From: Escherichia phage vB_EcoM_G4507
Sequence record: NC_054919.1
Length of the DNA: 64,000 bases
Strand: one strand, 5' to 3'
Shown: positions 97 to 21,996 of the stretch, one piece after another
Numbering within the stretch: position 1 is the first letter of the stretch
How the letters are laid out: each line of letters begins with the position of its first letter
Translations under genes and position numbers: made by a program
The notes under the pieces: model-generated
What the model saw: the letters and a program-made list of their open reading frames with translations, nothing else
What the model was told of the DNA's origin: nothing
Database searches by the model: none

Positions 97-1380
97 ATGG
101 CTAAAATCAACGAACTTCTGCGCGAATCAACCACAACGAATAGCAACTCAATCGGTCGCCCAAATCTCGTTGCTTTGACTCGCGCTACCACTAAATTAAT
201 ATATTCTGACATTGTAGCAACGCAAAGAACTAATCAACCTGTTGCTGCTTTTTATGGTATCAAATACCTTAACCCGGATAACGAATTTACATTTAAAACT
301 GGTGCTACTTACGCCGGCGAAGCTGGATATGTAGACCGAGAACAAATCACAGAATTAACAGAAGAGTCTAAATTAACTCTCAATAAGGGCGATTTATTCA
401 AATATAATAATATCGTTTATAAAGTATTAGAAGATACACCATTTGCTGATATTGAAGAAAGCGATTTAGAATTAGCTCTTCAGATTGCAATTGTTCTTTT
501 AAAGGTTCGTCTATTTTCTGACGCAGCGTCAACAAGCAAATTTGAAAGCTCTGATAGTGAAATTGCGGATGCTAGATTCCAGATTAATAAATGGCAAACC
601 GCAGTTAAATCTCGTAAACTTAAAACTGGTATCACAGTTGAATTAGCACAAGATTTAGAAGCAAATGGATTCGATGCTCCTAATTTCTTGGAAGATTTGC
701 TTGCAACCGAAATGGCAGATGAAATCAATAAAGATATTCTGCAGTCTTTGATTACAGTGTCAAAACGCTATAAAGTTACAGGAATTACTGATACTGGATT
801 CATCGATTTGAGTTATGCATCTGCACCTGAAGCTGGTCGTTCATTATACCGAATGGTATGTGAAATGGTTTCACATATCCAGAAAGAATCAACTTATACA
901 GCAACGTTCTGTGTTGCTTCAGCTCGTGCCGCTGCGATTCTTGCTGCATCAGGTTGGTTAAAACATAAACCAGAAGATGACAAATATCTTTCACAAAATG
1001 CCTACGGGTTCTTAGCTAATGGTTTACCGCTTTATTGCGATACCAACAGCCCATTAGATTATGTAATCGTTGGCGTAGTAGAAAATATCGGTGAAAAAGA
1101 AATTGTTGGATCAATTTTCTATGCTCCGTATACAGAAGGTCTTGACTTAGATGACCCTGAACATGTAGGTGCATTTAAAGTTGTAGTTGATCCAGAAAGT
1201 TTGCAGCCATCTATCGGTTTATTAGTTAGATATGCTTTATCTGCAAATCCTTACACTGTAGCAAAAGATGAAAAAGAAGCAAGAGTAATTGATGGTGGAG
1301 ACATGGATAAAATGGCGGGTCGTTCAGATTTGTCTGTTTTATTAGGTGTTAAGCTACCAAAAATTATCATTGATGAATAA
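97..1380 (+). CDS. 24: Head vertex protein gp24
   Basis: 427 aa, same length as T4 gp24; N-terminus MAKINELLRES... recognised as major-capsid-fold vertex protein. Confidence 0.9.
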   Translation: MAKINELLRESTTTNSNSIGRPNLVALTRATTKLIYSDIVATQRTNQPVAAFYGIKYLNPDNEFTFKTGATYAGEAGYVDREQITELTEESKLTLNKGDLFKYNNIVYKVLEDTPFADIEESDLELALQIAIVLLKVRLFSDAASTSKFESSDSEIADARFQINKWQTAVKSRKLKTGITVELAQDLEANGFDAPNFLEDLLATEMADEINKDILQSLITVSKRYKVTGITDTGFIDLSYASAPEAGRSLYRMVCEMVSHIQKESTYTATFCVASARAAAILAASGWLKHKPEDDKYLSQNAYGFLANGLPLYCDTNSPLDYVIVGVVENIGEKEIVGSIFYAPYTEGLDLDDPEHVGAFKVVVDPESLQPSIGLLVRYALSANPYTVAKDEKEARVIDGGDMDKMAGRSDLSVLLGVKLPKIIIDE

Positions 1381-1386
1381 AACAAA

Positions 1387-1402
1387 GGGACCTTTCGGTC
1401 CC
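1387..1402. terminator. Bidirectional hairpin terminator (gggacc-tttc-ggtccc) between gene 24 and rnlB
   Basis: Perfect inverted repeat flanked by A-run and T-run. Confidence 0.6.
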
Positions 1403-1409
1403 TTTTTAT

Positions 1410-2414
1410 TTAACTTACCAATTCAATCCAAGCCGGACGAAGTACATCTTGTACCATTTTAACTAATTCCTTCTTAATCAAAGAAGGATTATCCGCTTGA
1501 GTTAGAGTAATACCTTCACGAGAAGTTTCTTCCAAAATATCTTGAACCGTTAGTCCCATCACCTTTCCAAAATCTTTTGGACCAATTTCACCAATTTTAG
1601 AAATAACGTTATTTACTCGGTTCAGTGTAACATAACAAGCTAAAATTCCCAGCAATTTATTATCAGCTTCTGACAACTCAACTTTAGCTTTAATAGGCTT
1701 ATCAGACTTTTTCTTTTCACTAAATTTAGAGTTCTTGCATTTGATGGCTACACGATTGCGATTAGGCAGCCAAGAAGGATAACAAGGTTTCAATACATAT
1801 CCTTCAGCGGTAAATACTTCGCCTTTTGCTTCAGCATTCCAAACGCATTTATTTGCATCAACTAATCCAGCATGGTCTACCGTAAAATTATAATCCTGTA
1901 CGACAGAATCTAAATCATTTGGCAATTTAATAAGTTCTTCAAATTTACCACGACCTAAAAGTGGAGCCATTTTAAATTTAAATGTATTACAGAATGATTC
2001 CATCATATAATCATCGACATAAATTACATCACCACTTTCTGTAGTAACAATAATGTCAAATACATAAAAATCTTTATCACCATAATCGACATTCTTCTGA
2101 ATGCCAGGTCCGGCGAATTCACCAAAGACTTGATAAGATACAACCGCTGAAGTTTCCATAATATCTTGTACTGCTTTAATGGAATCAGCGTAATTCTTCA
2201 AAATAATTTCATACCCAAAGAAATCTTCAGCAGGAAGAATAGGACCAGTTCGTTTAGCACAAGTTACTTTATCACGCTCAATAATCAATGAGAAATTTGT
2301 GCCGTGAATCTTTTCACGAGCTACCCATTCGCCGCCAGTCAATCCTAAACTGTAAAGTTTTTCAATAAATTTAGAGTTGTAATGATTTTCAAGACTGCTA
2401 TACTTTTTAAACAT
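1410..2414 (-). CDS. rnlB: RNA ligase 2 (Rnl2)
   Basis: 334 aa; [16 protein letters not shown]...KIHGTNFS contains the nucleotidyltransferase lysine motif; matches T4 Rnl2 length and N-terminus. Confidence 0.9.
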
Positions 2415-2423
2415 AATTAATCC

Positions 2424-2702
2424 TCAAAATGTAATTTCTAACCAATCACCATCACGCTGATCACTATTGACTTTAAAGCTAAATCCTTCTTTTCTCAGCC
2501 AATCACCAATTTCTTCAGTAATCAATTTATCGCGAGCAGTACAATAATAACTAAAATATGTTTTACCTTGTTCAGCTGCTTTATTAGCAAGTTCCGAAAA
2601 ATCTTTAATAAAACACTCTAGCTTAAACTGTTTACTTTTAAGTGCTTTTTCACGTAATTGATTAGCAAAAGATTCATTTTCATAAAGATCATACTGTTCC
2701 AT
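2424..2702 (-). CDS. Hypothetical protein (T4 24.2 position)
   Basis: 92-aa ORF, translationally coupled to neighbours, syntenic with T4 24.2. Confidence 0.6.
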   Translation of the reverse strand: MEQYDLYENESFANQLREKALKSKQFKLECFIKDFSELANKAAEQGKTYFSYYCTARDKLITEEIGDWLRKEGFSFKVNSDQRDGDWLEITF

Positions 2703-2904
2703 TTTTCACCTTTTTATTAATATGCCTTTTTCTATAGACAACTTTTTCTCGAGTTTCAAATTTATTCTTAGCAGTCATAGCTCGAGCCCATAATACAGCC
2801 ACTTCTTTCGCCTGTAAGTTTAATTCACGAGCAATTTCAATGAATGACTTTCCAGACTCATGAAGAGTAAACACCACAACCTCAGTTCTCATAATCAATC
2901 TCAT
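2689..2904 (-). CDS. Hypothetical small protein with possible helix-turn-helix (T4 24.3 position)
   Basis: 71-aa ORF; segment SFIEIARELNLQAKEVAVLWARA resembles an HTH. Confidence 0.5.
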   Translation of the reverse strand: MRLIMRTEVVVFTLHESGKSFIEIARELNLQAKEVAVLWARAMTAKNKFETREKVVYRKRHINKKVKNGTV

Positions 2905-2973
2905 GTTATCGAGTTGATGCCATTATATACATCATTTTCTGAGTATGTTTTGTGTGCTTTCAAAATGAAGAAA

Positions 2974-2987
2974 GGGGCCGAAGCCCC
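2974..2987 (-). terminator. Hairpin terminator (ggggcc-ga-agcccc) region downstream/upstream of hoc
   Basis: GC-rich inverted repeat in the intergenic region. Confidence 0.45.
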
Positions 2988-2993
2988 TTATGA

Positions 2994-4412
2994 TTATGGA
3001 TAGGTATAGATGATACCAGTTTCTAAAGCAGTTTTATGAATGATGTATCCATTGCGTGATTCTTGAACATCAACTTCTGGATAGTCTTTCATCATCTTCT
3101 GAAGAGTGTAACGATGCAGGTAGTATTTACTATCTGGATCTTCAGTTTTCCAATCTTTACCTTCTTCGGTCATTTTTTGGATTTCATCCATAACCCACCA
3201 ACCGCACCAGATATAAGCTGAAGTGCGATGTGGAAGAGGATGAACATAAGGCAATTCACCTTCTGGTTCCGGAGCAACTTTATCAGTTACCTGAACTTGG
3301 CCTGTTGCTTTAACTGTTTTACTATCATAGTCGGTTGCTGTAACGGTTGCAGTAACTTCAATAGTTTGACTTCCAATAGATGATGTATCAACCGTGTATA
3401 CATTAGTTGATTCTTCTACAGGAGAAGAATCTTTCTTCCATGAATATTCGATTTGTGCTTCTTCTGGAGCATCCGTAACATTAGCAGTAAATGTAGCCGA
3501 AGCATCTTGCTGAACGTTAATAGAAGGAGGAGTCAATGTAACCTGTGGATTCATTGTCTTCTTATTAACTGTTAATGATACTTCATTAGAAGTAACTTCC
3601 TTTTCATTGTAATTTTCAGCCGTTACTTGGGCTACGCATTTAATTCTTTTTACTCCACTTGTAGTTGGAGTATAGTTAAATGTAGAGTTAGTTTCTCCAC
3701 CAATTTGAGAATCATCTACATACCATTTATATGTAGCAGACGCTCCATCAGGTTGAGAAACCAAGGCAGCAGTAAATTGAACTGGGGTTCCAATTACTCC
3801 AGCTGGAGGACTATCAGGAGTTACTGCCAAGGTAGTTGTCTGCGTCTTTTTATTAACAGTCAGTGACACTTCATTGGAAGTAACTTCCTTTGTATCATAA
3901 TCTGTCGCGGTTACTTGAGCTACGCACTTAATTGTTTTAACTCCGCTTGCGTCAGGAGTGTAATTGAATGTAGTGCTAGTTGCTTCGCCCACAGGAGAAC
4001 CGTCAACGTACCATTGATACGTAGCGTTTGCACCTGATGGCTGTGAAGCTAAGGCAGCGGTAAATTCAATTGGAGTTCCAATCACTCCAGCATCAGGGCT
4101 ACCAGGAGTTACTGCCAAAGTAGTTGTTTGTGTCTTATTTTGAACTGTGATAGTTGTACTAATTTCAGCTGTTTCAGGTTCAGATTCTGCAACTTGATTG
4201 GTTGCAACTACTTTAATAGTCTTTTGACCGGCAGGTCCTTTTAGTACATAACTAAAAGTTGCTGACGTTTCTTCCTGTGGAGCGTCGTCTACAGTCCAAG
4301 CATATGTAATAGGTCCATCTCCAGTTTGACCACTGGGTGTAGCAGTAAACTGCTGAGTCTGATCTATAACTCCAGTAGGTGTTTTAGGAGTTATATCAAC
4401 TGTAAAAGCCAT
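2994..4412 (-). CDS. hoc: Highly immunogenic outer capsid protein Hoc, with four Ig-like domains
   Basis: 472 aa; N-terminus MAFTVDITPKTPTGVIDQTQQFTATPSGQTG and C-terminal capsid-binding tail ...IWCGWWVMDEIQKMTEEGKDW match T4 Hoc; about 96 aa longer than T4 Hoc (376 aa). Confidence 0.85.
   Translation of the reverse strand: MAFTVDITPKTPTGVIDQTQQFTATPSGQTGDGPITYAWTVDDAPQEETSATFSYVLKGPAGQKTIKVVATNQVAESEPETAEISTTITVQNKTQTTTLAVTPGSPDAGVIGTPIEFTAALASQPSGANATYQWYVDGSPVGEATSTTFNYTPDASGVKTIKCVAQVTATDYDTKEVTSNEVSLTVNKKTQTTTLAVTPDSPPAGVIGTPVQFTAALVSQPDGASATYKWYVDDSQIGGETNSTFNYTPTTSGVKRIKCVAQVTAENYNEKEVTSNEVSLTVNKKTMNPQVTLTPPSINVQQDASATFTANVTDAPEEAQIEYSWKKDSSPVEESTNVYTVDTSSIGSQTIEVTATVTATDYDSKTVKATGQVQVTDKVAPEPEGELPYVHPLPHRTSAYIWCGWWVMDEIQKMTEEGKDWKTEDPDSKYYLHRYTLQKMMKDYPEVDVQESRNGYIIHKTALETGIIYTYP
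3561..4136 (-). repeat. Tandem duplication of a 288-nt Ig-like domain unit inside hoc (two diverged copies)
   Basis: Residues 93-188 and 189-284 are near-identical at protein level (KTQTTTLAVTP...EVSLTVNK twice); DNA copies diverged by synonymous changes. Confidence 0.7.
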
Positions 4413-4421
4413 AAGTTATCC

Positions 4422-5102
4422 TTATTTTAATGTTACGAAAGAAGAATTACGTGTTTCACGAATTAGAACTGATCCGTCACGATTAATGTAGTAAATTAAG
4501 CTAAATAAAGTTTGGTGTGCCGACGCATGTTCAAAACTAGTTGGGTGAGATTTCCAATCTGGGGTTTCAGCAATCCATTGATAAATCCACCAAGGAACAG
4601 TGCAGAATCCTGGATTTTTTCCAATCAGCTGAAGATTCGGACTAAAGTTTTCCGGAAGAGTAAATACAGACGGCTTTTCAGATTCAATAATCTCAGCTAC
4701 AGCCTGTTCGAATTTTTCTTCAACAAAAGGAGTATCTTCAATTAAAACAGTGGTATTTTCAGGAATTTTATCCGTTTCTACTACTTCAATTTTAATGTCA
4801 GATTTAACCGGAGAATCAATCAGAAGTGCTGCCTCTGGATTGACTTCTTCATCGTCATATTTTAATCCGTCTGCGGCATCAGCAGCATCAATTAAGTCTT
4901 TAATAGATAACCCATCAGTCTCTGGCATAGGTTCACTAGCGAGCTTCTGGAGAGCTTCTTCAATATCATTAACGATATTATCAAAAGATTTATTCTTTTT
5001 GACCTTTATACCAAACTGTTCAGCATATTCAGCTAATTTAGCTTTAGCTTCTTTATTATCATCAAGAGCCTTCAGCTCTGCAATATAATCTTTATCTATC
5101 AT
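4422..5102 (-). CDS. inh: Inhibitor of prohead protease gp21 (Inh)
   Basis: 226 aa, same length and position as T4 inh. Confidence 0.7.
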   Translation of the reverse strand: MIDKDYIAELKALDDNKEAKAKLAEYAEQFGIKVKKNKSFDNIVNDIEEALQKLASEPMPETDGLSIKDLIDAADAADGLKYDDEEVNPEAALLIDSPVKSDIKIEVVETDKIPENTTVLIEDTPFVEEKFEQAVAEIIESEKPSVFTLPENFSPNLQLIGKNPGFCTVPWWIYQWIAETPDWKSHPTSFEHASAHQTLFSLIYYINRDGSVLIRETRNSSFVTLK

Positions 5103-5115
5103 AATATTTCCTCAG

Positions 5116-5123
5116 TATAAATA
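5116..5123 (+). promoter_or_regulatory. Late-promoter-like TATAAATA upstream of segD
   Basis: Exact TATAAATA about 30 nt upstream of the segD ATG. Confidence 0.4.
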
Positions 5124-5151
5124 TAGATATATTTATTACTCGGAAAATAGT

Positions 5152-5769
5152 ATGTACCACTTTGTATATGAAACAACAAATCTAATAAATGGTAAAAAGT
5201 ATATAGGAAAACACTCTACTGATGACTTGAATGATGGTTACCTTGGTTCCGGTAAGGCAATTCAGCAGGCTATAAAGAAATATGGTGAAAACAATTTCTC
5301 TAGAACAATACTAAAAGAGTTTAAAACTTCCGAAGAAGCGTACATGTATGAAGAAGAAATTATAACTCCTGAAATAATAAAAAGCAAAAATTATTATAAT
5401 ATGAAACCTGGTGGAATTGGTGGAATTGTTATGACTACAGAGGTTATAGCAAAGATGAAAGAATCTTCCGCTAAGAGATTTGAAAACTCACCGGGCACGG
5501 TATTAGGTACAACTTGTTACACTAATGGAACTAAAAATATTTTTATTAAACCTGGAGAACTTGTTCCAGAAGGATTTGTAAAAGGAATGGTTCATCCTAA
5601 TAGAAAGTCCAGAAAAGGATGTAAAGTCAAACCGACTACCACAGGAACTTTTTGGGTCAATAACGGTGCAATAAATAAATTAATACAACCAGACGGTATT
5701 ATTCCCGACGGATTTATTAAAGGTCGTCTCATGAAAAGAGATTCTAAAGGCAAATTTAGTAAGGCATAA
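5152..5769 (+). CDS. segD: Free-standing GIY-YIG homing endonuclease SegD-like
   Basis: 205 aa; N-terminal HFVYETTNLINGKKYIGK is a GIY-YIG motif; sits between inh and uvsW as in T4. Confidence 0.75.
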   Translation: MYHFVYETTNLINGKKYIGKHSTDDLNDGYLGSGKAIQQAIKKYGENNFSRTILKEFKTSEEAYMYEEEIITPEIIKSKNYYNMKPGGIGGIVMTTEVIAKMKESSAKRFENSPGTVLGTTCYTNGTKNIFIKPGELVPEGFVKGMVHPNRKSRKGCKVKPTTTGTFWVNNGAINKLIQPDGIIPDGFIKGRLMKRDSKGKFSKA

Positions 5770-5771
5770 TT

Positions 5772-7280
5772 ATGGATATTAAAGTACATTTTCACGACTT
5801 CAGCCATGTACGCATCGATTGTGAAGAGAGCACGTTCCACGAATTAAGAGATTTCTTTTCGTTTGAGGCCGATGGATATAGATTTAATCCTCGCTTCAGA
5901 TATGGCAACTGGGATGGACGAATCCGTCTTTTAGATTATAATCGTCTTCTTCCATTTGGCTTAGTCGGGCAAATTAAAAAGTTCTGTGATAACTTTGGCT
6001 ATAAAGCCTGGATTGACCCACAAATTAACGAAAAAGAAGAATTATCAAGAAAAGATTTTGATGAATGGCTTTCTAAATTAGAAATCTATTCAGGAAATAA
6101 AAGAATTGAACCGCATTGGTATCAAAAAGATGCAGTGTTCGAAGGATTAGTTAATCGTCGTAGAATTCTTAATCTTCCAACATCCGCTGGTAAATCTTTA
6201 ATTCAAGCTTTGCTTGCGCGATATTATTTGGAAAATTATGAAGGCAAAATTCTTATCATTGTTCCAACAACTGCTCTGACAACTCAGATGGCTGATGACT
6301 TTGTTGACTATCGTTTATTCAGTCATGCAATGATAAAGAAAATCGGCGGTGGAGCATCAAAAGATGATAAATATAAAAATGATGCACCGGTCGTTGTTGG
6401 TACATGGCAAACTGTAGTTAAACAACCAAAAGAATGGTTCTCACAGTTTGGAATGATGATGAATGATGAATGCCATCTTGCTACAGGAAAAAGTATTTCA
6501 TCTATCATATCAGGTTTAAATAACTGTATGTTCAAATTTGGTCTATCTGGTTCATTACGTGATGGCAAAGCCAATATCATGCAGTATGTTGGAATGTTTG
6601 GTGAAATATTTAAGCCAGTAACGACTTCTAAGTTAATGGAAGATGGACAAGTAACTGAGCTAAAAATTAATAGTATTTTTCTTCGCTATCCCGATGAGTT
6701 CACTACTAAATTAAAGGGAAAAACTTATCAAGAAGAAATAAAAATTATTACGGGGCTTAGTAAAAGAAATAAATGGATCGCTAAATTGGCTATTAAGCTT
6801 GCACAAAAAGATGAAAACGCTTTTGTCATGTTTAAACATGTATCACATGGTAAAGCTATTTTCGATTTAATTAAAAATGAATACGATAAAGTTTATTACG
6901 TATCAGGGGAAGTTGATACCGAAACCCGCAATATAATGAAAACCTTAGCTGAAAATGGTAAAGGAATAATTATAGTAGCTAGTTATGGTGTATTTTCTAC
7001 TGGTATTTCAGTTAAAAATCTGCATCACGTTGTTTTAGCGCACGGTGTTAAATCAAAAATCATTGTATTACAAACAATCGGTCGTGTATTACGTAAGCAT
7101 GGTTCTAAAACAATCGCAACAGTCTGGGACCTCATAGATGACTGTGGTGTCAAGCCAAAATCTGCTAATACTAAAAAGAAATATGTTCACTTGAACTATC
7201 TTTTAAAACACGGCATTGATCGTATTCAGCGCTACGCAGATGAAAAATTTAATTACGTAATGAAAACAGTTAATTTATAA
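5772..7280 (+). CDS. uvsW: UvsW DNA/RNA helicase (SF2, recombination and origin unwinding)
   Basis: 502 aa, same length as T4 UvsW; Walker A-like LNLPTSAGKS and DECH box (MMMNDECHLATGK). Confidence 0.9.
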   Translation: MDIKVHFHDFSHVRIDCEESTFHELRDFFSFEADGYRFNPRFRYGNWDGRIRLLDYNRLLPFGLVGQIKKFCDNFGYKAWIDPQINEKEELSRKDFDEWLSKLEIYSGNKRIEPHWYQKDAVFEGLVNRRRILNLPTSAGKSLIQALLARYYLENYEGKILIIVPTTALTTQMADDFVDYRLFSHAMIKKIGGGASKDDKYKNDAPVVVGTWQTVVKQPKEWFSQFGMMMNDECHLATGKSISSIISGLNNCMFKFGLSGSLRDGKANIMQYVGMFGEIFKPVTTSKLMEDGQVTELKINSIFLRYPDEFTTKLKGKTYQEEIKIITGLSKRNKWIAKLAIKLAQKDENAFVMFKHVSHGKAIFDLIKNEYDKVYYVSGEVDTETRNIMKTLAENGKGIIIVASYGVFSTGISVKNLHHVVLAHGVKSKIIVLQTIGRVLRKHGSKTIATVWDLIDDCGVKPKSANTKKKYVHLNYLLKHGIDRIQRYADEKFNYVMKTVNL

Positions 7281-14841: not shown

Positions 14842-15806
14842 TGTATTCTTTAGAGGAATTTAATAATCAAGCAATAAACGCAGATTTCCAACGTAATAAT
14901 ATGTTCAGCTGTGTTTTTGCTACAACTCCATCAACTAAAAGCTCTTCGTTGATAAGTTCAATTAGCAACTTTTCTTATAATAACTTGGGCCTAAATTCAG
15001 ATTGGTTAGGATTAACTCAAGGCGATATTAATCAGGGAATTACTACGCTAATTACAGCTGGCACACAAAAACTGATAAGAAAATCAGGGGTTAGTAAATA
15101 TCTTATTGGTGCCATGAGTCAACGTACAGTTCAAAGTTTATTAGGCTCATTTACAGTTGGTACATATTTAATTGACTTCTTTAACATGGCATATAACTCA
15201 TCTGGATTGATGATATACTCTGTAAAAATGCCAGAGAATAGATTATCCTATGAAACTGACTGGAACTATAATTCTCCTAATATTCGTATAACTGGGAGAG
15301 AATTAGACCCTTTGGTTATTTCATTCAGAATGGATTCAGAAGCTTGTAACTATCGTGCAATGCAAGACTGGGTTAACGCTGTTCAAGACCCAGTAACTGG
15401 ATTGCGTGCTTTGCCGCAAGATGTCGAGGCTGATATTCAGGTTAATCTTCATTCTCGCAATGGATTACCACATACTGCGGTGATGTTCACTGGATGCATT
15501 CCAGTGTCCGTAAGCGCTCCTGAGTTATCATATGATGGAGATAACCAAATAACTACATTTGATGTTACTTTTGCGTATAGAGTCATGCAGGCTGGAGCAG
15601 TTGATAGACAAGCTGCGCTTGAATGGCTTGAATCTGCTGCTATAAATGGTATTCAAAGCGTTCTCGGAAATAGTGGAGGTGTCACTGGACTATCTAATTC
15701 GCTTTCACGACTTAGTAGATTAGGGGGAACTGCAGGAAGCATTTCAAATATTAACACTATGACAGGAATTGTCAATTCGCAAAGTAAAATATTAGGAGCA
15801 ATATAA
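14841..15806 (+). CDS. 54: Baseplate tail tube initiator gp54
   Basis: 321 aa; T4 gp54 is about 320 aa. Confidence 0.85.
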   Translation: MYSLEEFNNQAINADFQRNNMFSCVFATTPSTKSSSLISSISNFSYNNLGLNSDWLGLTQGDINQGITTLITAGTQKLIRKSGVSKYLIGAMSQRTVQSLLGSFTVGTYLIDFFNMAYNSSGLMIYSVKMPENRLSYETDWNYNSPNIRITGRELDPLVISFRMDSEACNYRAMQDWVNAVQDPVTGLRALPQDVEADIQVNLHSRNGLPHTAVMFTGCIPVSVSAPELSYDGDNQITTFDVTFAYRVMQAGAVDRQAALEWLESAAINGIQSVLGNSGGVTGLSNSLSRLSRLGGTAGSISNINTMTGIVNSQSKILGAI

Positions 15807-15810
15807 CAAT

Positions 15811-15828
15811 GGGGACCTTTCGGTCCCC
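15811..15828. terminator. Bidirectional hairpin terminator ggggacc-tttc-ggtcccc
   Basis: 7-bp GC stem, tetraloop, flanked by A/T runs; between convergent gene 54 and the minus-strand 96-aa ORF. Confidence 0.65.
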
Positions 15829-15834
15829 ATATTT

Positions 15835-16125
15835 TTATTTACGGAATGAAATGAAAGCAGCAACTGAAGCAACTAAACTGTCTTCAATATAAACTTCAAT
15901 TTTTACCGGAGCTTCTGACTCAAATTTACCTGTTACTACACCCTGAAAAATACTTTCAGTCTGTTCTGGCTTTGAAAAATTTTCAGAAGGAAAAATTCCG
16001 AACTTTTTATCTGTTCCAAAAATTTTGATAAATTCATCGTAAACTGCTTCATTAAAAGCATTATCAGCAGGAATAACGCCTTCAACTACAAGTTCTTGAC
16101 CTAAAAAGCGCAAAGAAGATTTCAT
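15835..16125 (-). CDS. Hypothetical protein (alt.-3 position)
   Basis: 96-aa ORF preceded by an early promoter and GAGGA Shine-Dalgarno. Confidence 0.6.
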   Translation of the reverse strand: MKSSLRFLGQELVVEGVIPADNAFNEAVYDEFIKIFGTDKKFGIFPSENFSKPEQTESIFQGVVTGKFESEAPVKIEVYIEDSLVASVAAFISFRK

Positions 16126-16132
16126 TTTGTGT

Positions 16133-16186
16133 TCCTCATGTTATGTCAGTAAGACTACTATAACACAACACGAGGGACTTGTAAAC
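16133..16186 (-). promoter_or_regulatory. T4-type early promoter plus leader: GTTTAC(-35), 18 nt, TATAGT(-10); copy 1 of a 54-nt repeat
   Basis: Minus strand reads GTTTACAAGTCCCTCGTGTTGTGTTATAGTAGTCTTACTGACATAACATGAGGA then ATG; identical bar 1 nt to 31387-31440. Confidence 0.6.
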
Positions 16187-18243
16187 TACATCTTGAACTT
16201 TTTAGACATTCCGTTGATGTTAACCAAAGAAGCTAAGATTTGAGAAACTTCGTTTTCCTCTTCTTTTGATTCTTCTACAAGGAATTGATTAAATCCAGCC
16301 ATTGGACGAACTTCACCAGTTTCCATTAGATGGTCGCCATCATATACTGATTCTTCTAATTGTTCAGAAGGAGGAACGATTGTACCTTCGATTAGATACT
16401 TGTTATAAGCAGTTTCTTTCATAAAGTAAGTACTTACTTTATTAATCTTCAGTAAAATTCCACGTGGTAGAATAACTTCAGCTTCTGACGGAAATCCTGA
16501 TAAATGACCCGGAACGATAACTTTGATTCGCTCAGCTCCTTTAATTACCATACCCACGCTAGTTTCAGCATCTTCATTAGCATATGTAGAATGACTACCC
16601 ATATGCATCAAATCTTCTGCATCAACGGAACCTTCTCCTTCACCAGAAAATACTGCGCCGGAATCATCTAGAGCCATATAGTTTTTACCATGCTCACCGA
16701 AGATATTTGGTTTAAGCGATGTGGATACGAAGTTCTTGAAATAGAACATTTTATTTTCAATGTTATGACGCAAAGTTTTAAAGGTAACTTCTTGTCCACG
16801 GTAAAGTGTAGTTCCTGGAGGAAGAACTGAACCTTTAGCGAATGCAGAATCAAGCGTCTCAATATGTTTAATAGCTCGTTCCATATATTCTTCACGGGTA
16901 GAATCTGGTTTACCCAAAAGGAACGAGTTCATTTCAACATATGAATCTGCACAATAATCTTCAATTACATCAGATTCAGCTTGAGTTAATCCTTTTGGAG
17001 TTACTTCAGTGCTTGCGTATTCATATGCCTGAGCAGCAGATTCATTAATCAATTTATAAATGCCATTCATGACAAATTGAATAATAGCTGTCTTTTCATC
17101 TGGCGTAGCTTTAGAACCTTTAACCAAATCATTGATAATTTTCTTAATAACATCAAAGCTATTAGAAATATTAATATCAGCAAGATCGCTTAAAATTTTA
17201 TCAGTCTTATAATCAAAGAATTCTTTATTCTTTAAATATTCTTGAGAACCTTGATATGTTATATCGCTCTGTAACTTGATAGATGGATCACGTAAACGTG
17301 CATGGGCTAATGCAATATGATTTCGGAAGCTTTCGAGTTCATAATCACTAGATTTAAAACGAGAAGCGCTTCTCATACCGCCTATAGCTCCTTTGCTGAA
17401 GTTTGAACCAATTTGAATAACGCCAGAGTTCATTGGTCCTTCTGCTTTATACACCGGAACTTTAGATTCAAACTCTTGATATTTCTTAGCAGCGAAGCTA
17501 TCACCCTGAAGTGAAGCATCAACAGTAGAATATTGAGCTTGTGCTGCTAATCGACGACTAATTTTAGTTTTCTGAATAACAGCTTGGTCCGTGCGCTTAT
17601 CATTTTCTAAAGCAATAGAAGCAGCAACAGCAACAGCTTTAGGAACAGCATTACCTGTTTTAACATCTACATAAACATCACCAACCTTTGATTCAACTTT
17701 TGTGAATAACTCAGTTGAAATAGGAGGTACACCTGGAATGTCTTCTAAATTGGCATTTTTACGATAAACCATAATATATGCGTACTTTTTATCATAATCC
17801 CAGATTTCCTTTAAAAGAACATATCGACCTGCTCCTTTAGTACGTACTAAACGGTCAGCAATAACTTGCATTTGACGAGCAGCGCCATTTGTTTTACTCT
17901 TTAGTACGCGGAATAAGCATGCATCAATTTTATACTGTTTCATTGTTTGAAGAGCAGTATCAAAAACAGCGTTAATGACGCCAATTGGATTTCCACCCAA
18001 GTTTCTAAGTTTAACCAGTGATAATTTCTCGTTGACACCTATCATTACGATATGCATCATTTTATCGCCCGGCTTAACGTTTTTATTTGTATCACCTCCA
18101 GAGGTGTATGTACAAAATCTAAATCCAGGAAGCACGCTTTCTTCGCCGGCTTGAATAGCAAAAATTTGAGGTATTTTATGCTTAGGATTTAAGTTAACAA
18201 CCGGCGCCGAAGCGCCGTCAAATAATTCTGTAATAAGTTCCAT
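16186..18243 (-). CDS. Alt-family mono-ADP-ribosyltransferase paralog (685 aa)
   Basis: Shares N-terminus MELITELFD, LCTYTSGGDTN, YKIDAC, QVIADRL, YVLLKE.WDYDKKYAYI with the adjacent Alt; C-terminal R-S-E motifs LYRGQ, FVSTSL, EAEVILPRG. Confidence 0.75.
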   Translation of the reverse strand: MELITELFDGASAPVVNLNPKHKIPQIFAIQAGEESVLPGFRFCTYTSGGDTNKNVKPGDKMMHIVMIGVNEKLSLVKLRNLGGNPIGVINAVFDTALQTMKQYKIDACLFRVLKSKTNGAARQMQVIADRLVRTKGAGRYVLLKEIWDYDKKYAYIMVYRKNANLEDIPGVPPISTELFTKVESKVGDVYVDVKTGNAVPKAVAVAASIALENDKRTDQAVIQKTKISRRLAAQAQYSTVDASLQGDSFAAKKYQEFESKVPVYKAEGPMNSGVIQIGSNFSKGAIGGMRSASRFKSSDYELESFRNHIALAHARLRDPSIKLQSDITYQGSQEYLKNKEFFDYKTDKILSDLADINISNSFDVIKKIINDLVKGSKATPDEKTAIIQFVMNGIYKLINESAAQAYEYASTEVTPKGLTQAESDVIEDYCADSYVEMNSFLLGKPDSTREEYMERAIKHIETLDSAFAKGSVLPPGTTLYRGQEVTFKTLRHNIENKMFYFKNFVSTSLKPNIFGEHGKNYMALDDSGAVFSGEGEGSVDAEDLMHMGSHSTYANEDAETSVGMVIKGAERIKVIVPGHLSGFPSEAEVILPRGILLKINKVSTYFMKETAYNKYLIEGTIVPPSEQLEESVYDGDHLMETGEVRPMAGFNQFLVEESKEEENEVSQILASLVNINGMSKKFKM

Positions 18244-18246
18244 GAT

Positions 18247-20298
18247 TTATCCTTGAACGAACTTGTAAGGCATGTTTGTAATATCTATGCAAGACGCAAT
18301 AATTCCAAGAGATGATTCTACTTTCTGTTTAACATTTGATGAAACAAATGATGCAAAGTCAACTCTATCTTCTATATCACCTGTCATTGTAACTACTTCG
18401 CCGGTTTCCATTAAACGGTCACCGTCATAAATTACTGATTCGGTGAGTTCTTCGGTGGTCATAACTTCAGCTTGAATAAGCTTGTTGTTAGTTTTGACTG
18501 TTCCATCATTGTAAGATGCATCAGTTATTTTATTAACTTTGACCATTAATCCACGTGGCAAAATGACTTCCATTTCATTTGAAGGCGCTAAACTTCCACC
18601 GGGTAAAACAACATTGACTTTATCAGCCCCAGTAATAACCCATCCAATTCCGACTAAATTATCGCTAGAATTAACAAGCCCTTCATCATTTTTATCGATA
18701 GAAATGTTTAGACGCTTTTCATCTGGTAAAACACCAACAGCTGAATCAGTCATCCAAGTACCAAAAATGTTTGGATATAATGATGTTGATACAAAATTTC
18801 TAAAATAAAAAACTCGATTTTTTACCATTGCTTCGTATATTGAAGGTAACATTCGTTGTGAACGATACAAAGTAATACCTTTTGGTAATCGTTCACCATT
18901 TTTAAAGGCTGAATCTAAATTATCAATAGCTTTTTCTATGTCAGATGCTGTCAAAATACTTGTACGCTCATCTGGATTATATAATCCCAAAAGAGCATTA
19001 TTTATGTCTACATATCCTGAACCTACGTATTCACGAATTCCGCGTTTTTGTGCTGGTGTGTATTTAGATGAATCTTTATTTTCGACTATAGGATGTAATG
19101 ACCATCCAGCTGTAAGAGCATATCCACGTAATTCTCTTCGAATAATCTTTGTTTTTATTGCATTCCAAGAATTTTGTACTAACTCATTTGCAGCATCTTG
19201 GTTTAAATGCGAATGTTTGTTAATATTTCTTTCAAACCAAGCACCTTTATATTTTTCTAAAGTATTATCGACGATAGAAGCAATAGTTTCTAAAGTTTTT
19301 ATTGAAGTAATAGATTCTTTTCGTAATTTTTCTAAAGCTTTATTTTTTATTTCTGCATTAATAATGGATTCTTTATCTTCAGGAATTATAGAAGCTTCTC
19401 TGAATGCCATCCCAGCTGTAACACTGCTAAGAGCATTCTCTAGTGCAAATCCTGAAGTAGAAATTACCGTTAATTCATTAGAATCAGAAATTAAAGGCGC
19501 ATCAGCGGGTTTATTTAATTCTGCTGCTGAAGCCTCAAATTTTTGAAACATCGGTGTTTCAAATCTAGAAGATTCCAATGACTGACTTTGTGCAATTGCT
19601 CTACGGGAAATTTTAACTTTAACGATTACAGCTTGGTCAGAACGTTTATCATTTTCTTGTGCAATAGATGCTGCAATTGCCTCATTTTTGGTTACTTGAG
19701 CTCCGGTATCTTTATTGATATAAACATCACCGACCTTCGATTCAACTTTAGTAAAGAGCTCGGTACTAATTTCCGGAACTCCTGGAATGTCTTCTAGTGA
19801 TACATTTTTGCGATGTATAAGAATATATGCATACTTTTTATCATAATCCCAGAGTTCCTTAAGAAGGACGTATCTGCCACCTGAACGACTACGGATAAGT
19901 CTATCAGCAATAACTTGAATTTGTCGAGCTTGACCAGCGGTTTTAGACTTAAGAATACGAAGCATACAGGCATCAATTTTATACTGACGCATTGTTTGCA
20001 TCGCAACAGTAAAAACTGAATTGATATAATTAATTGGGCTTGGACCAAGACCTTTTAATTTAGCAATTGAACCTTTAGCAGTTAATGTAAAAGGAACAAT
20101 ATGCATCATTTTATCGCCCATCTTTAAATCGCGATTAGTATCACCTCCAGATGTATAGGTACATAAACGAAAGCCTGGTTGTTCAATTGCATCATCAACA
20201 TGAACTGAAAAAATTTGCGGTATTTTCTTCTTTGGATTTAAGTTTGTAATCGGAAGAGTAGTATCTTCGTCAAATAATTCTGTAATAAGTTCCATCAT
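18247..20298 (-). CDS. alt: Alt, RNA polymerase ADP-ribosyltransferase (packaged and injected)
   Basis: 683 aa (T4 Alt 682 aa); R-S-ExE motifs LYRSQ, FVSTSL, EMEVILPRG; immediately upstream of DNA ligase as in T4. Confidence 0.85.
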   Translation of the reverse strand: MMELITELFDEDTTLPITNLNPKKKIPQIFSVHVDDAIEQPGFRLCTYTSGGDTNRDLKMGDKMMHIVPFTLTAKGSIAKLKGLGPSPINYINSVFTVAMQTMRQYKIDACMLRILKSKTAGQARQIQVIADRLIRSRSGGRYVLLKELWDYDKKYAYILIHRKNVSLEDIPGVPEISTELFTKVESKVGDVYINKDTGAQVTKNEAIAASIAQENDKRSDQAVIVKVKISRRAIAQSQSLESSRFETPMFQKFEASAAELNKPADAPLISDSNELTVISTSGFALENALSSVTAGMAFREASIIPEDKESIINAEIKNKALEKLRKESITSIKTLETIASIVDNTLEKYKGAWFERNINKHSHLNQDAANELVQNSWNAIKTKIIRRELRGYALTAGWSLHPIVENKDSSKYTPAQKRGIREYVGSGYVDINNALLGLYNPDERTSILTASDIEKAIDNLDSAFKNGERLPKGITLYRSQRMLPSIYEAMVKNRVFYFRNFVSTSLYPNIFGTWMTDSAVGVLPDEKRLNISIDKNDEGLVNSSDNLVGIGWVITGADKVNVVLPGGSLAPSNEMEVILPRGLMVKVNKITDASYNDGTVKTNNKLIQAEVMTTEELTESVIYDGDRLMETGEVVTMTGDIEDRVDFASFVSSNVKQKVESSLGIIASCIDITNMPYKFVQG

Positions 20299-20334
20299 AG
20301 CCTCTCTAGTGTTTATTCTATTTATAAAATTAAA

Positions 20335-20346
20335 GGCCCGAAGGCC
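20335..20346. terminator. Hairpin ggccc-ga-aggcc
   Basis: Inverted repeat in the alt upstream intergenic region. Confidence 0.4.
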
Positions 20347-20347
20347 T

Positions 20348-20536
20348 TTAATAATCTAGTGGTAAGAGAGTACGGTATATTTCAAACTTTGGACCTTTTT
20401 CATAGGCATCAAATGTTTCTGTGAATTTATTATAAGCATATGCATCTACAAATTCGAGAATGACTTGTGATACAGAAGTAGAAACATCTCCACCTTCTTT
20501 TTGAGCAATGACAATTGTTTCTAAGTAAGCTTTCAT
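20348..20536 (-). CDS. Hypothetical small protein
   Basis: 62-aa ORF overlapping the ligase stop by 4 nt (translational coupling). Confidence 0.5.
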   Translation of the reverse strand: MKAYLETIVIAQKEGGDVSTSVSQVILEFVDAYAYNKFTETFDAYEKGPKFEIYRTLLPLDY

Positions 20537-21996
20537 AAACCAGTTACCTCATGAAAATCACCAAATACATCCTCGAATGTATTAGCTTTAGTTTTATCTT
20601 CACGCAAACGAATCGCAATCGGAAGAAATAATTTAACGTAATCAGTGCGGCCATCAGATTTTAACCAACCGTTGCATTCGCACTCTAGAATTTTTCCAAT
20701 ATAATAATTTTGGTTTTCCATAATGCGAGTACGGTCAAGTTCATGCGATTTTACACCGGCTTTATCTTTTAAGCCTGAACCAGCATTTACTTTAATTTTT
20801 CCACACTCTGACTCAAGAATAAATCCACCTGCTTTAGTAGGGTCTTTACGGTGAGGATAAATTCCTACAATTTTTAAATCAACATCAATTACTTCTTTAA
20901 ATTTATAGAGATTTTTTGAACGAGCATTTTCCCATAATCCATCGATATTTTTGAGAATAATACCTTCAAGACCTTGGTCAATATACTTTTTATAAATTAT
21001 CTTGGCTTCGTCTAGGTTATTTACTACCTGGTTTTCAATTAAAATTACTTTATCATAGCCTGATGTCATTTGTTCTAGTTTAGAAAAACGTACATCATAT
21101 TTCAAACGAAATGCAGGAAGACCGTATATTTCTACCAACGGTACATAATCCCAGACCTGAAACTTCATGCATTGTGCTTCTTTTTCAGAAATGGTTCCCT
21201 TTAAAGATTTATTGGCGATGCCATTAGATGCAGTACGTGATTCAGCTACTTCGGCGAATTCTTTAGCTTTACTGTTTTCAGGATAAGCATCAAAAAGAAA
21301 ATCTAGGCCTTCTGGCTCCTTTTTAACTTGCTCATGATATACCAATTCGCCATCAATTAACACGCCTTCTGGATGAATCTGGCGGGCTTCAGCGGTCATT
21401 TTGATTAATTCTTCCTTAAGAAGATCTAATCCTAGATATTCATTACCAGCTCGTGATAAAAGACGAACGTCATCTAATTCATCACCTCTGACTTCGGCAA
21501 AGCACCGAGCTCCATCAGCTTTTAACTGGGCAAAGGCTGGAAATTTGATATTCTTATTAATGCCTTTTTCATCATAAGAACTTGCAAGCATTTGAGGTTG
21601 TTCAGGAATTAAACCTGGCCAAACTTTGTTCGCAATAGATACTGAAGCGCCACATTCAAGGTCTCGCATCATCACTCGACGCAAAACTTCAACATCATCT
21701 TTTTTACCGTCAGTAATATAACCTACTAATTCCTCAATTGCCGCATTTCCGGTCAATTTTCGAGTAGCTAATGTAAATTCAATGAAGTCAAGCATATCAG
21801 TAATAGTCAGCATTCCAAAACTCTGGGTAGCAATACCAGGTTTAGGCCATTTCTTGATATAATACTGTAACCCACGAGAATAAGTCAGACGATATACTCG
21901 TTTAAGCAATTCATTATCTTTATTCTTTTCAAGAATTGCTTGCTTCTGCTTAGTTGAACCAATAGATGCTATTTCGTTCAGAATTTTAAGAATCAT
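20533..21996 (-). CDS. 30: ATP-dependent DNA ligase gp30
   Basis: 487 aa, same length as T4 ligase; adenylation motif AQLKADGARCF (KxDG). Confidence 0.95.
   Translation of the reverse strand: MILKILNEIASIGSTKQKQAILEKNKDNELLKRVYRLTYSRGLQYYIKKWPKPGIATQSFGMLTITDMLDFIEFTLATRKLTGNAAIEELVGYITDGKKDDVEVLRRVMMRDLECGASVSIANKVWPGLIPEQPQMLASSYDEKGINKNIKFPAFAQLKADGARCFAEVRGDELDDVRLLSRAGNEYLGLDLLKEELIKMTAEARQIHPEGVLIDGELVYHEQVKKEPEGLDFLFDAYPENSKAKEFAEVAESRTASNGIANKSLKGTISEKEAQCMKFQVWDYVPLVEIYGLPAFRLKYDVRFSKLEQMTSGYDKVILIENQVVNNLDEAKIIYKKYIDQGLEGIILKNIDGLWENARSKNLYKFKEVIDVDLKIVGIYPHRKDPTKAGGFILESECGKIKVNAGSGLKDKAGVKSHELDRTRIMENQNYYIGKILECECNGWLKSDGRTDYVKLFLPIAIRLREDKTKANTFEDVFGDFHEVTGL

Follow-up and report, generated by a model that had tools for sequence, protein, structure and literature searches.

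A conserved tandem paralog of alt in Escherichia phage vB_EcoM_G4507, probably encoding a second head-delivered ADP-ribosyltransferase and largely missing from T4

Among phage enzymes that are injected with the DNA to reprogram the host, Alt of phage T4 is the textbook case, and ADP-ribosylation of the RNA polymerase alpha subunit is published for it. Here, we describe the Alt locus of Escherichia phage vB_EcoM_G4507 in a window of 64,000 nucleotides (the whole stretch of sequence record NC_054919.1 that was analysed), where alt is followed by a second full-length gene of the same family, alt.-2. T4 Alt (gpAlt, NP_049811) is a non-essential head-core protein, present in ~40 copies per head and ejected with the DNA (PMC9026906). 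It is cut by the prohead protease gp21 after ITE-6 and LTE-619 (PMC5694885) and ADP-ribosylates arginine in an NAD+-dependent manner, the E577A mutant, which lacks the second Glu of the Glu-x-Glu (ExE) motif, being catalytically dead (PMC11404850). T4 ModA and ModB are ADP-ribosyltransferases (ARTs) of the same arginine-serine-glutamate (R-S-E) type and the same phage group and, like Alt, modify host proteins, but they are small, early and unpackaged proteins without the N-terminal and central modules. The C3, VIP2, iota, Vis and Certhrax toxins (R-S-E ARTs, PF03496) share the catalytic fold and the Arg, Ser-Thr-Ser (STS) and (E/Q)-x-E motifs with Alt; these toxins are secreted or binary bacterial toxins, whereas Alt proteins have a phage-specific head-delivery N-terminal module and are trimmed by gp21. 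Alt duplications were reported earlier for 44RR (ORF187c) and, as the fragments alt.-1 and alt.-2, for T4 (PMC1524935, 2006), and later for JS98, Bp7 and Ac42, together with a split Alt in ZZ1 (PMC4177764, 2014). The copies of 44RR, JS98, Bp7 and Ac42 lie in tandem next to baseplate genes, as here, and belong to other genera.

Over 4.8 kb, the locus is 99.8% identical to that of Escherichia phage vB_EcoM_G4498 and its relatives (genus Tequatrovirus), and both genes are labelled "Alt-like RNA polymerase ADP-ribosyltransferase" in the G4498 RefSeq record. The minus-strand gene order is the classical one of T4, with the ligase gene (gene 30), alt.1, alt, the second copy and alt.-3, and with genes 54 and 48 on the opposite strand; the placement between gene 30/alt.1 and alt.-3/gene 54 is the same in T4, T2, RB32 and T6. 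The two genes, referred to as copy A and copy B, are as follows.

18247..20295, minus strand: copy A, the ortholog of T4 alt, with the T4-type effector cassette (682 amino acids plus stop; the mechanical open reading frame reaches 20298)
16186..18243, minus strand: copy B, alt.-2 (685 amino acids plus stop), beginning 3 nt past the stop of copy A

A sequence-only reading of this DNA had described adjacent minus-strand open reading frames (ORFs) of 685 and 683 amino acids as tandem full-length Alt-family paralogs. The paralogy was confirmed over the full length (BLASTP, 42% identity, E = 8e-162), and the coordinates stood; the 683 amino acids probably do not. Two in-frame ATGs lie at 20293-20298, at the start of copy A. 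The GAGG of the ribosome-binding site (GAGAGG) precedes the first by 2 nt and the other (20295) by 5 nt, and it is at the latter that T4 is annotated to start. As both this spacing and the T4 annotation favour the second ATG, the true product is probably 682 residues long, one fewer than in the 683-residue ORF.

We assign a probability of roughly three in four to the reading that alt and its ancient tandem paralog alt.-2 encode late, head-packaged, gp21-trimmed, arginine-specific ARTs on a shared delivery module, which differ in those parts that are likely to choose the substrate. The gene itself has been recorded before: alt.-2 of RB32, RB14, T6 and T2 (e.g. YP_803136, YP_010073850) is the same gene at 95-98% nucleotide identity, without substantive difference, and has the RefSeq product name "Alt-like RNA polymerase ADP-ribosyltransferase". 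It is named alt.-2 in RB32 and RB14, has this name in the coding-sequence note in T6, and is unnamed but intact in T2; in RB32 and T6, the gene is entered as an "apparent insertion in alt.-2", to which the RB32 note adds "similar to alt". With both genes annotated under the Alt name in RefSeq and Alt duplications in print since 2006 and 2014, the tandem pair is real but known.

The Alt architecture (N-terminal domain, helical region, ART domain, tail) is complete in both proteins, with the same domain order in both structural models, and both match phrog_802 end to end (copy A, E = 3e-262; copy B, E = 2e-256). PF03496 was matched by copy A with E = 3e-36 (125 bits) and by copy B with E = 6e-20 (71.9 bits; gathering cut-off 23.4), and PF26846 (Tevenvirinae_ADPRT) is recorded on the cluster representative of copy B (99% identical) and on close homologs. 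Sequence searches of PDB and NCBIfam with copy B alone matched nothing. The domains of copy B were delimited as follows.

17539..18243, minus strand: N-terminal alpha/beta domain, residues 1-235, basic (isoelectric point (pI) 9.7), PF26846, containing MELITE with the gp21 motif I-T-E6
16999..17538, minus strand: central all-helical region, residues 236-415, sequence similarity to its counterpart in copy A undetectable
16384..16998, minus strand: ADP-ribosyltransferase domain, residues 416-620, with R482, S507/S509 and E587/E589

The N-terminal half is common to both copies, as had been proposed, with ~68% identity over residues 1-235; the string LCTYTSGGDTN, listed as common, is exact in copy A and reads FCTYTSGGDTN in copy B. 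The N-terminal domains are basic (pI 9.5-9.7) and the tails acidic (pI 4.2-4.3) in both proteins. Identity falls to 3-30% per 30-column window over residues 240-410 (9% over the domain), and is 38% in the ART domain (420-620) and ~43% in the C-terminal tail. The central regions had been called unrelated, which is true of their sequences but probably not of their fold. Profile-profile comparison of the two regions (built from five and six homologs) detected no homology (hhalign probability 0.35%); in the AlphaFold models (residues ~240-415), helices follow each other in much the same order and with much the same lengths. The model of copy B also aligned with that of the 30%-identical Alt of phage SP18 over 659 columns, with template modelling (TM) scores of 0.65-0.70. 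From these models, it is more probable that the central regions derive from one helical domain and have diverged strongly than that they are unrelated inserts. Compared to T4 Alt, copy B is alike in length, domain order, MELITE start, the positions of both gp21 sites, the R/STS/ExE motifs, promoter context and genome position, and unlike in its overall sequence (42% identity), in residues ~240-410, which lack detectable similarity, and in its STS-ExE loop, which is different and more acidic.

A search with the PF26846-type N-terminal domain (phmmer, 1.84 billion representative proteins) retrieved 69 proteins, nearly all of 600-712 amino acids. The idea that this domain is a general chassis for other kinds of effectors was rejected, as PF03496 was found in 58 of 60 and further Pfam domains in none.

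The catalytic residues were assigned by alignment. A complete R-S-ExE signature had been proposed for both ORFs, and a residue-by-residue check for loss of the catalytic Arg or Glu came out negative, with R478, S503-T-S505 and E574-M-E576 in copy A and R482, S507-T-S509 and E587-A-E589 in copy B. The corresponding codons are as follows.

18568..18576, minus strand: copy A Glu-x-Glu, E574-M-E576 (E576 is E577 under the 683-residue numbering)
16798-16800, minus strand: copy B R482
16717-16725, minus strand: copy B S507 and S509
16477-16485, minus strand: copy B E587 and E589

Across 58 full-length family representatives, taken from the N-terminal domain search described above, there is no variation at the Arg, the first Ser or either Glu, and the Ser in the third position is present in at least 90%. 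The family profile belongs to the ART fold: searched against PDB, it matched the C3-like toxin 4xsg, CPILE-a/BECa, Certhrax and Vis, and its LYR and ExE-LPR segments line up with the toxin catalytic motifs (4xsg). In the R-S-E clade, Glu-x-Glu points to arginine as acceptor, versus the Gln-x-Glu of C3 toxins. Because both copies have Glu-x-Glu, both are predicted to be arginine-specific.

Copy B is uninterrupted over its 685 codons in seven of the eight phages sampled (present window, T2, RB32, T6, phiD1, PP01, ECO07P5), and the cluster to which it belongs at 90% identity numbers 772 sequences. Between the seven, each pair shows 4-22 non-synonymous and 40-91 synonymous differences, and the pairwise ratios of non-synonymous to synonymous substitution rates (dN/dS) are 0.02-0.06. 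Taken domain by domain, dN/dS does not exceed ~0.1 in any of the four, the central region and the tail included, and is ~0.01 in the N-terminal domain. Copy B is therefore under strong purifying selection and is not a decaying duplicate. In the eighth phage, Shigella phage sb1 (2653-4710 of the compared segment), copy B has one internal stop; as the same record also splits gp48, this is likely a sequencing or assembly error rather than a real loss of the gene.

These data bear on the possibility that alt.-2 is an incipient pseudogene or a non-enzymatic paralog. That the gene can be lost, as seen in T4, and the stop in sb1 would fit such a state, which is nonetheless contradicted by the selection data, the retention of every catalytic residue and the intact 685 residues in all other phages sampled; we consider it highly improbable. 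What the sequences show is that both copies belong to the Alt-family ARTs, that neither has lost its catalytic or processing motifs, and that selection maintains copy B.

For head delivery, the sites at which gp21 cuts T4 Alt were located in both proteins. The MELITE start with its I-T-E6 motif is identical in copies A and B, and E6 is kept in at least 90% of the family. Near the C-terminus, LTE619|SV of copy A and LEE631|SV of copy B fall into the same aligned column, and the Glu is again kept in at least 90% of the family.

16189..16359, minus strand: copy B predicted C-terminal gp21 site L629-E-E631|S with the acidic tail 632-685, equivalent to L-T-E619|S of T4 Alt

By analogy to T4 Alt, the tail of copy B (632-685), the beginning of which is modelled with low confidence (629-663), is predicted to be cut off as a propeptide. 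The predicted mature masses are 68.2 kDa for copy A, which equals the published value, and ~69 kDa for copy B. On the same analogy, we infer that copy B is packaged, trimmed and injected like T4 Alt, and it is most likely a second packaged, injected and active enzyme. Alternatively, alt.-2 could be a late intracellular enzyme, or a head-core component that is degraded or retained, and would then act, if at all, in the producing cell. For this it can be said that no virion proteomics finding for alt.-2 was found in the literature and that late expression alone is no proof of packaging. It has to be set against the conservation of MELITE, of the whole N-terminal domain (dN/dS ~0.01) and of L-x-E|S in copy B, which have no obvious use beyond prohead targeting and gp21 processing, and against natural hybrids (see below) in which the N-terminal domain of copy A is mounted on the cassette of copy B, so that the modules are apparently interchangeable. 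A role confined to the producing cell is accordingly rated as unlikely.

Whether T4 has a second full-length copy at this position had been raised as an open question. It has none: T4 has alt and the fragments alt.-1 and alt.-2. Aligned to the window, T4 matches 15700-16205 and 17896-20700 at 96-97% (96.5% nucleotide identity for the latter stretch, which contains copy A), and 16206-17895 is absent in a clean gap.

16206..17895, minus strand: copy B segment deleted in T4, codons ~117-679 (1690 bp), with the junction at the microhomology CTAAA(G/A)AG

The T4 junction lies in this microhomology (7 of 8 positions match), the two sides of which read CTAAAGAG and CTAAAAAG. The T4 fragments correspond to the first ~116 codons of copy B plus its last few codons, and a frameshift near codon 55 splits this remnant into the annotated ORFs alt.-1 and alt.-2. 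According to the note in the T4 record, these fragments (NP_049810, NP_049809) stem from an old duplication of the first part of alt. They are, rather, what is left of a full-length paralog, and their PHROGs (phrog_23015 and phrog_15247) match copy B (2e-40 and 1e-37) better than copy A (1e-21 and 2e-19). The deleted segment was present at a coverage of at least 80% in 400 phage records, including T2 and T6, and a probe spanning the T4 junction was matched in full by 91 records (T4 and 90 others); at an identity of 95% or more, the central region of copy B occurs in 397 of 444 phage records. The two-gene arrangement is the majority state in Tequatrovirus and is not specific to the present genome. 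The microhomology at the junction, the additional frameshift of the T4 remnant and the existence of orthologs outside the genus (see below) show a deletion in T4 and not an insertion elsewhere; given these orthologs, the two-gene state is ancestral and T4 a deletion variant. The 1.69-kb deletion removed alt.-2 from the laboratory model, T4, and this is why a single Alt has been studied.

The genes at the two positions (slots A and B) vary in a modular fashion. Copy A is identical to T4 Alt in the N-terminal domain (100% of amino acids) and nearly so in the central region (99%) and the ART domain (97%). Compared to T2 in a sliding window, nucleotide identity is 93-100% in the flanks and falls abruptly to 40-75% between 19560 and 18466, with sharp boundaries.

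18466..19560, minus strand: copy A allelic effector cassette, codons ~246-611 (central helical region and ART core), T4-type here

T4-type and T2-type Alt proteins are 99-100% identical in their N-terminal domains and 94-98% in their tails; between these, identity is 31% (centre) and 65% (ART domain). A T4-type central region (identity of at least 90%) was found in 172 of 791 matching records; the T2-type is carried by the majority of other Tequatroviruses, T2, T6 and RB32 among them. The T4 deletion junction occurs with a T2-type alt in JEP6 (MT764206) and with a T4-type alt in IME537 (MT179807); alleles in slot A and the deletion in slot B thus assort independently and recombine freely. Phage dhabil of the genus Dhakavirus (compared over 701-4888) has orthologs of both cassette lineages. 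The cassette of copy B is closest to Dhakavirus copy 2 (centre 45%, ART 58%), and the A-slot cassettes group with Dhakavirus copy 1 (T4-type, 35% in the centre and 64% in the ART domain; T2-type, to which copy 1 is closest, 66% and 83%), so that the A and B cassette lineages have been retained alongside each other in both genera. The N-terminal domains resemble each other within a genome (68% in the Tequatrovirus window, 65% in dhabil) and less so between cross-genus cassette orthologs (42-46%). As they are more alike within a genome than between cassette orthologs, the N-terminal delivery module and the effector module have each had an evolutionary history of their own. Recent gene conversion was considered as a cause of the 68% N-terminal identity and rejected: synonymous divergence (dS) between A and B is saturated everywhere (1.2-1.4), and any exchange here is old.

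Exchange between the slots is seen in the database proteins P0003-P0006, in which a B cassette follows an A-type N-terminal domain and the crossover lies near codons 190-235. Single hybrid Alt genes (5001-7055 and 5001-7061) were found in Logan metagenome contigs SRR24155011 and SRR19633722, and in the first of these, of 65 kb, no Alt gene other than the hybrid lies between alt.1 and alt.-3. The paralogs thus appear to undergo unequal exchange, which would be able to delete slot A, and the N-terminal modules of A and B appear interchangeable. Since copies A and B have no exact 31-mer in common (the longest common run, at the start codon, is 28 nt), a de Bruijn mis-join is an unlikely source of the putative single hybrids (P0005, P0006); however, no hybrid in one piece was found in an isolated phage among the best matches listed.

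A separate irregularity was seen in RB69 alt (NC_004928; 4287-6374 of the compared segment), where the annotated Alt is without the catalytic Arg and the STS motif. The reason is that some 55 codons following LDSAF are frame-shifted; in another frame, this DNA encodes LPEGQTLYRAQ...FYFRNYVSTS. Either the gene has a compensated double frameshift, which leaves an inactive enzyme, or the record contains old sequencing errors.

Different targets had been proposed for the two enzymes from their divergent middle domains, which is reasonable; the evidence comes from the variable segments. Per-column entropy in the family is 1.8-2.0 bits in the ART core and the N-terminal domain, but reaches 3.11 bits in the central region and 3.16 bits in the STS-ExE loop (511-548), which makes these two the most variable segments of the family. 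In addition, each cassette type has an ortholog in another genus; both observations support distinct specificities. Different substrates are proposed because the helical region and the loop beside the active site differ completely between the copies; that the two enzymes have different target sets is plausible and forms the weakest link of our reading. The competing explanation is redundancy, by which alt.-2 would be packaged and active, would modify what Alt modifies (RNA polymerase alpha and its further known substrates) and would serve only as an extra dose or back-up. Both copies indeed have a common promoter and agree in domain order, ExE motif and N-terminal module, and the loss of either copy leaves the phage viable (T4, single hybrids), in line with the non-essential T4 Alt (PMC9026906). 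A pure dosage duplicate, however, would be expected to remain similar or to decay, whereas the ART domains are only 38% identical, the surroundings of the active site and the central regions share nothing, both Tequatrovirus and Dhakavirus have distinct A-slot and B lineages, and purifying selection on the B cassette is strong. We regard redundancy as improbable, although it carries more weight than a non-injected late role, which in turn is ahead of a dead copy.

Expression signals were searched for on both sides of the gene pair, and the following features and neighbouring genes are relevant to them.

20348..20536, minus strand: alt.1, upstream neighbour, 62 amino acids (Pfam PF24647, Phage_blade), separated from alt by a hairpin
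20332..20349, minus strand: this terminator-like hairpin, AAAGGCCTTCGGGCCTTT, overlapping the alt.1 stop and lying just 5' of the alt late promoter; a terminator is annotated at the equivalent place in G4498
20319..20326, minus strand: match to the T4 late-promoter consensus, TATAAATA, 23 nt 5' of the alt start, the sole such motif in the locus
17967-17983, minus strand: weaker terminator-like match inside copy B (6 pairs, 3 G-C)
15835..16125, minus strand: alt.-3, 96 amino acids (DUF5498), last gene of the presumed late transcript
15809..15830, strand not assigned: bidirectional terminator hairpin between alt.-3 and gene 54 (9 pairs, 6 G-C), the first strong one 3' of the late promoter on the minus strand

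For copy B, a separate ribosome-binding site, AAGGA, is found within the last codons of copy A. On this arrangement, a single late transcript alt -> alt.-2 -> alt.-3 from the promoter at 20319-20326 is most likely. The small flanking genes alt.1 and alt.-3 are conserved, and alt.-3 appears to be co-transcribed with both Alt genes. An antisense ORF of 202 amino acids inside copy A (18938-19546, plus strand) was not supported by the searches made and lies opposite a conserved coding region; it is probably spurious.

Taken in order, the proposed mechanism would run as follows. One late promoter 5' of alt would drive a transcript through alt, alt.-2 and alt.-3 that ends at the bidirectional terminator before gene 54; promoter, gene order and terminator were read from the DNA, and the transcript is deduced from them. 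Each protein is built of three parts, a basic N-terminal domain starting with MELITE, an effector composed of the variable helical region and a C3/VIP2-type ART, and an acidic tail. The N-terminal module would take the protein into the prohead core, where gp21, as shown for T4 Alt and presumed for alt.-2, would then cut after Glu6 and after the L-x-E near 619 (A) or 631 (B). The mature proteins of ~68-69 kDa would be ejected with the DNA and would move ADP-ribose from NAD+ to arginines of host proteins. Least secure is the last step, in which the two enzymes would most likely act on different host substrates.

Several points weigh against this reading. The late promoter is a bare match to an 8-mer, and with 11 found versus 8.7 expected, the window shows no enrichment of the motif; the call of TATAAATA as late promoter is based on its position and not on statistics. 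Either slot has been lost in nature, with T4 and 90 other records being without most of B and the metagenome hybrids without the A cassette, so that neither copy is essential and some redundancy is possible. As both enzymes have Glu-x-Glu and are predicted to be arginine-specific, their targets may overlap. A literature search for experimental work, virion proteomics or a function of alt.-2 returned annotation-level mentions only, in a scope from which subscription journals were largely excluded, such that this absence is no proof.

What remains of interest beyond the known tandem arrangement is that T4 is the deletion variant, and that a conserved and probably injected enzyme of most of its relatives is uncharacterised. 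Knowledge of Alt comes nearly all from T4, which is the exception at the Alt locus: the second enzyme is intact and strongly conserved in about four fifths of the related genomes in the phage collection, and at least two very different alleles exist of the first. More tentatively, and with slightly less than an even chance in our view, alt.-2 may be a second head-delivered ART that escaped study through the deletion in T4 and has host targets of its own, a defence or stress protein possibly among them, and the Alt locus may be a two-slot array of exchangeable cassettes on a common N-terminal module, by which natural T-even phages would vary in the enzymes they inject. If the second enzyme does have its own targets, early host takeover by natural T-even phages, therapy candidates included, would be richer than the T4 model.

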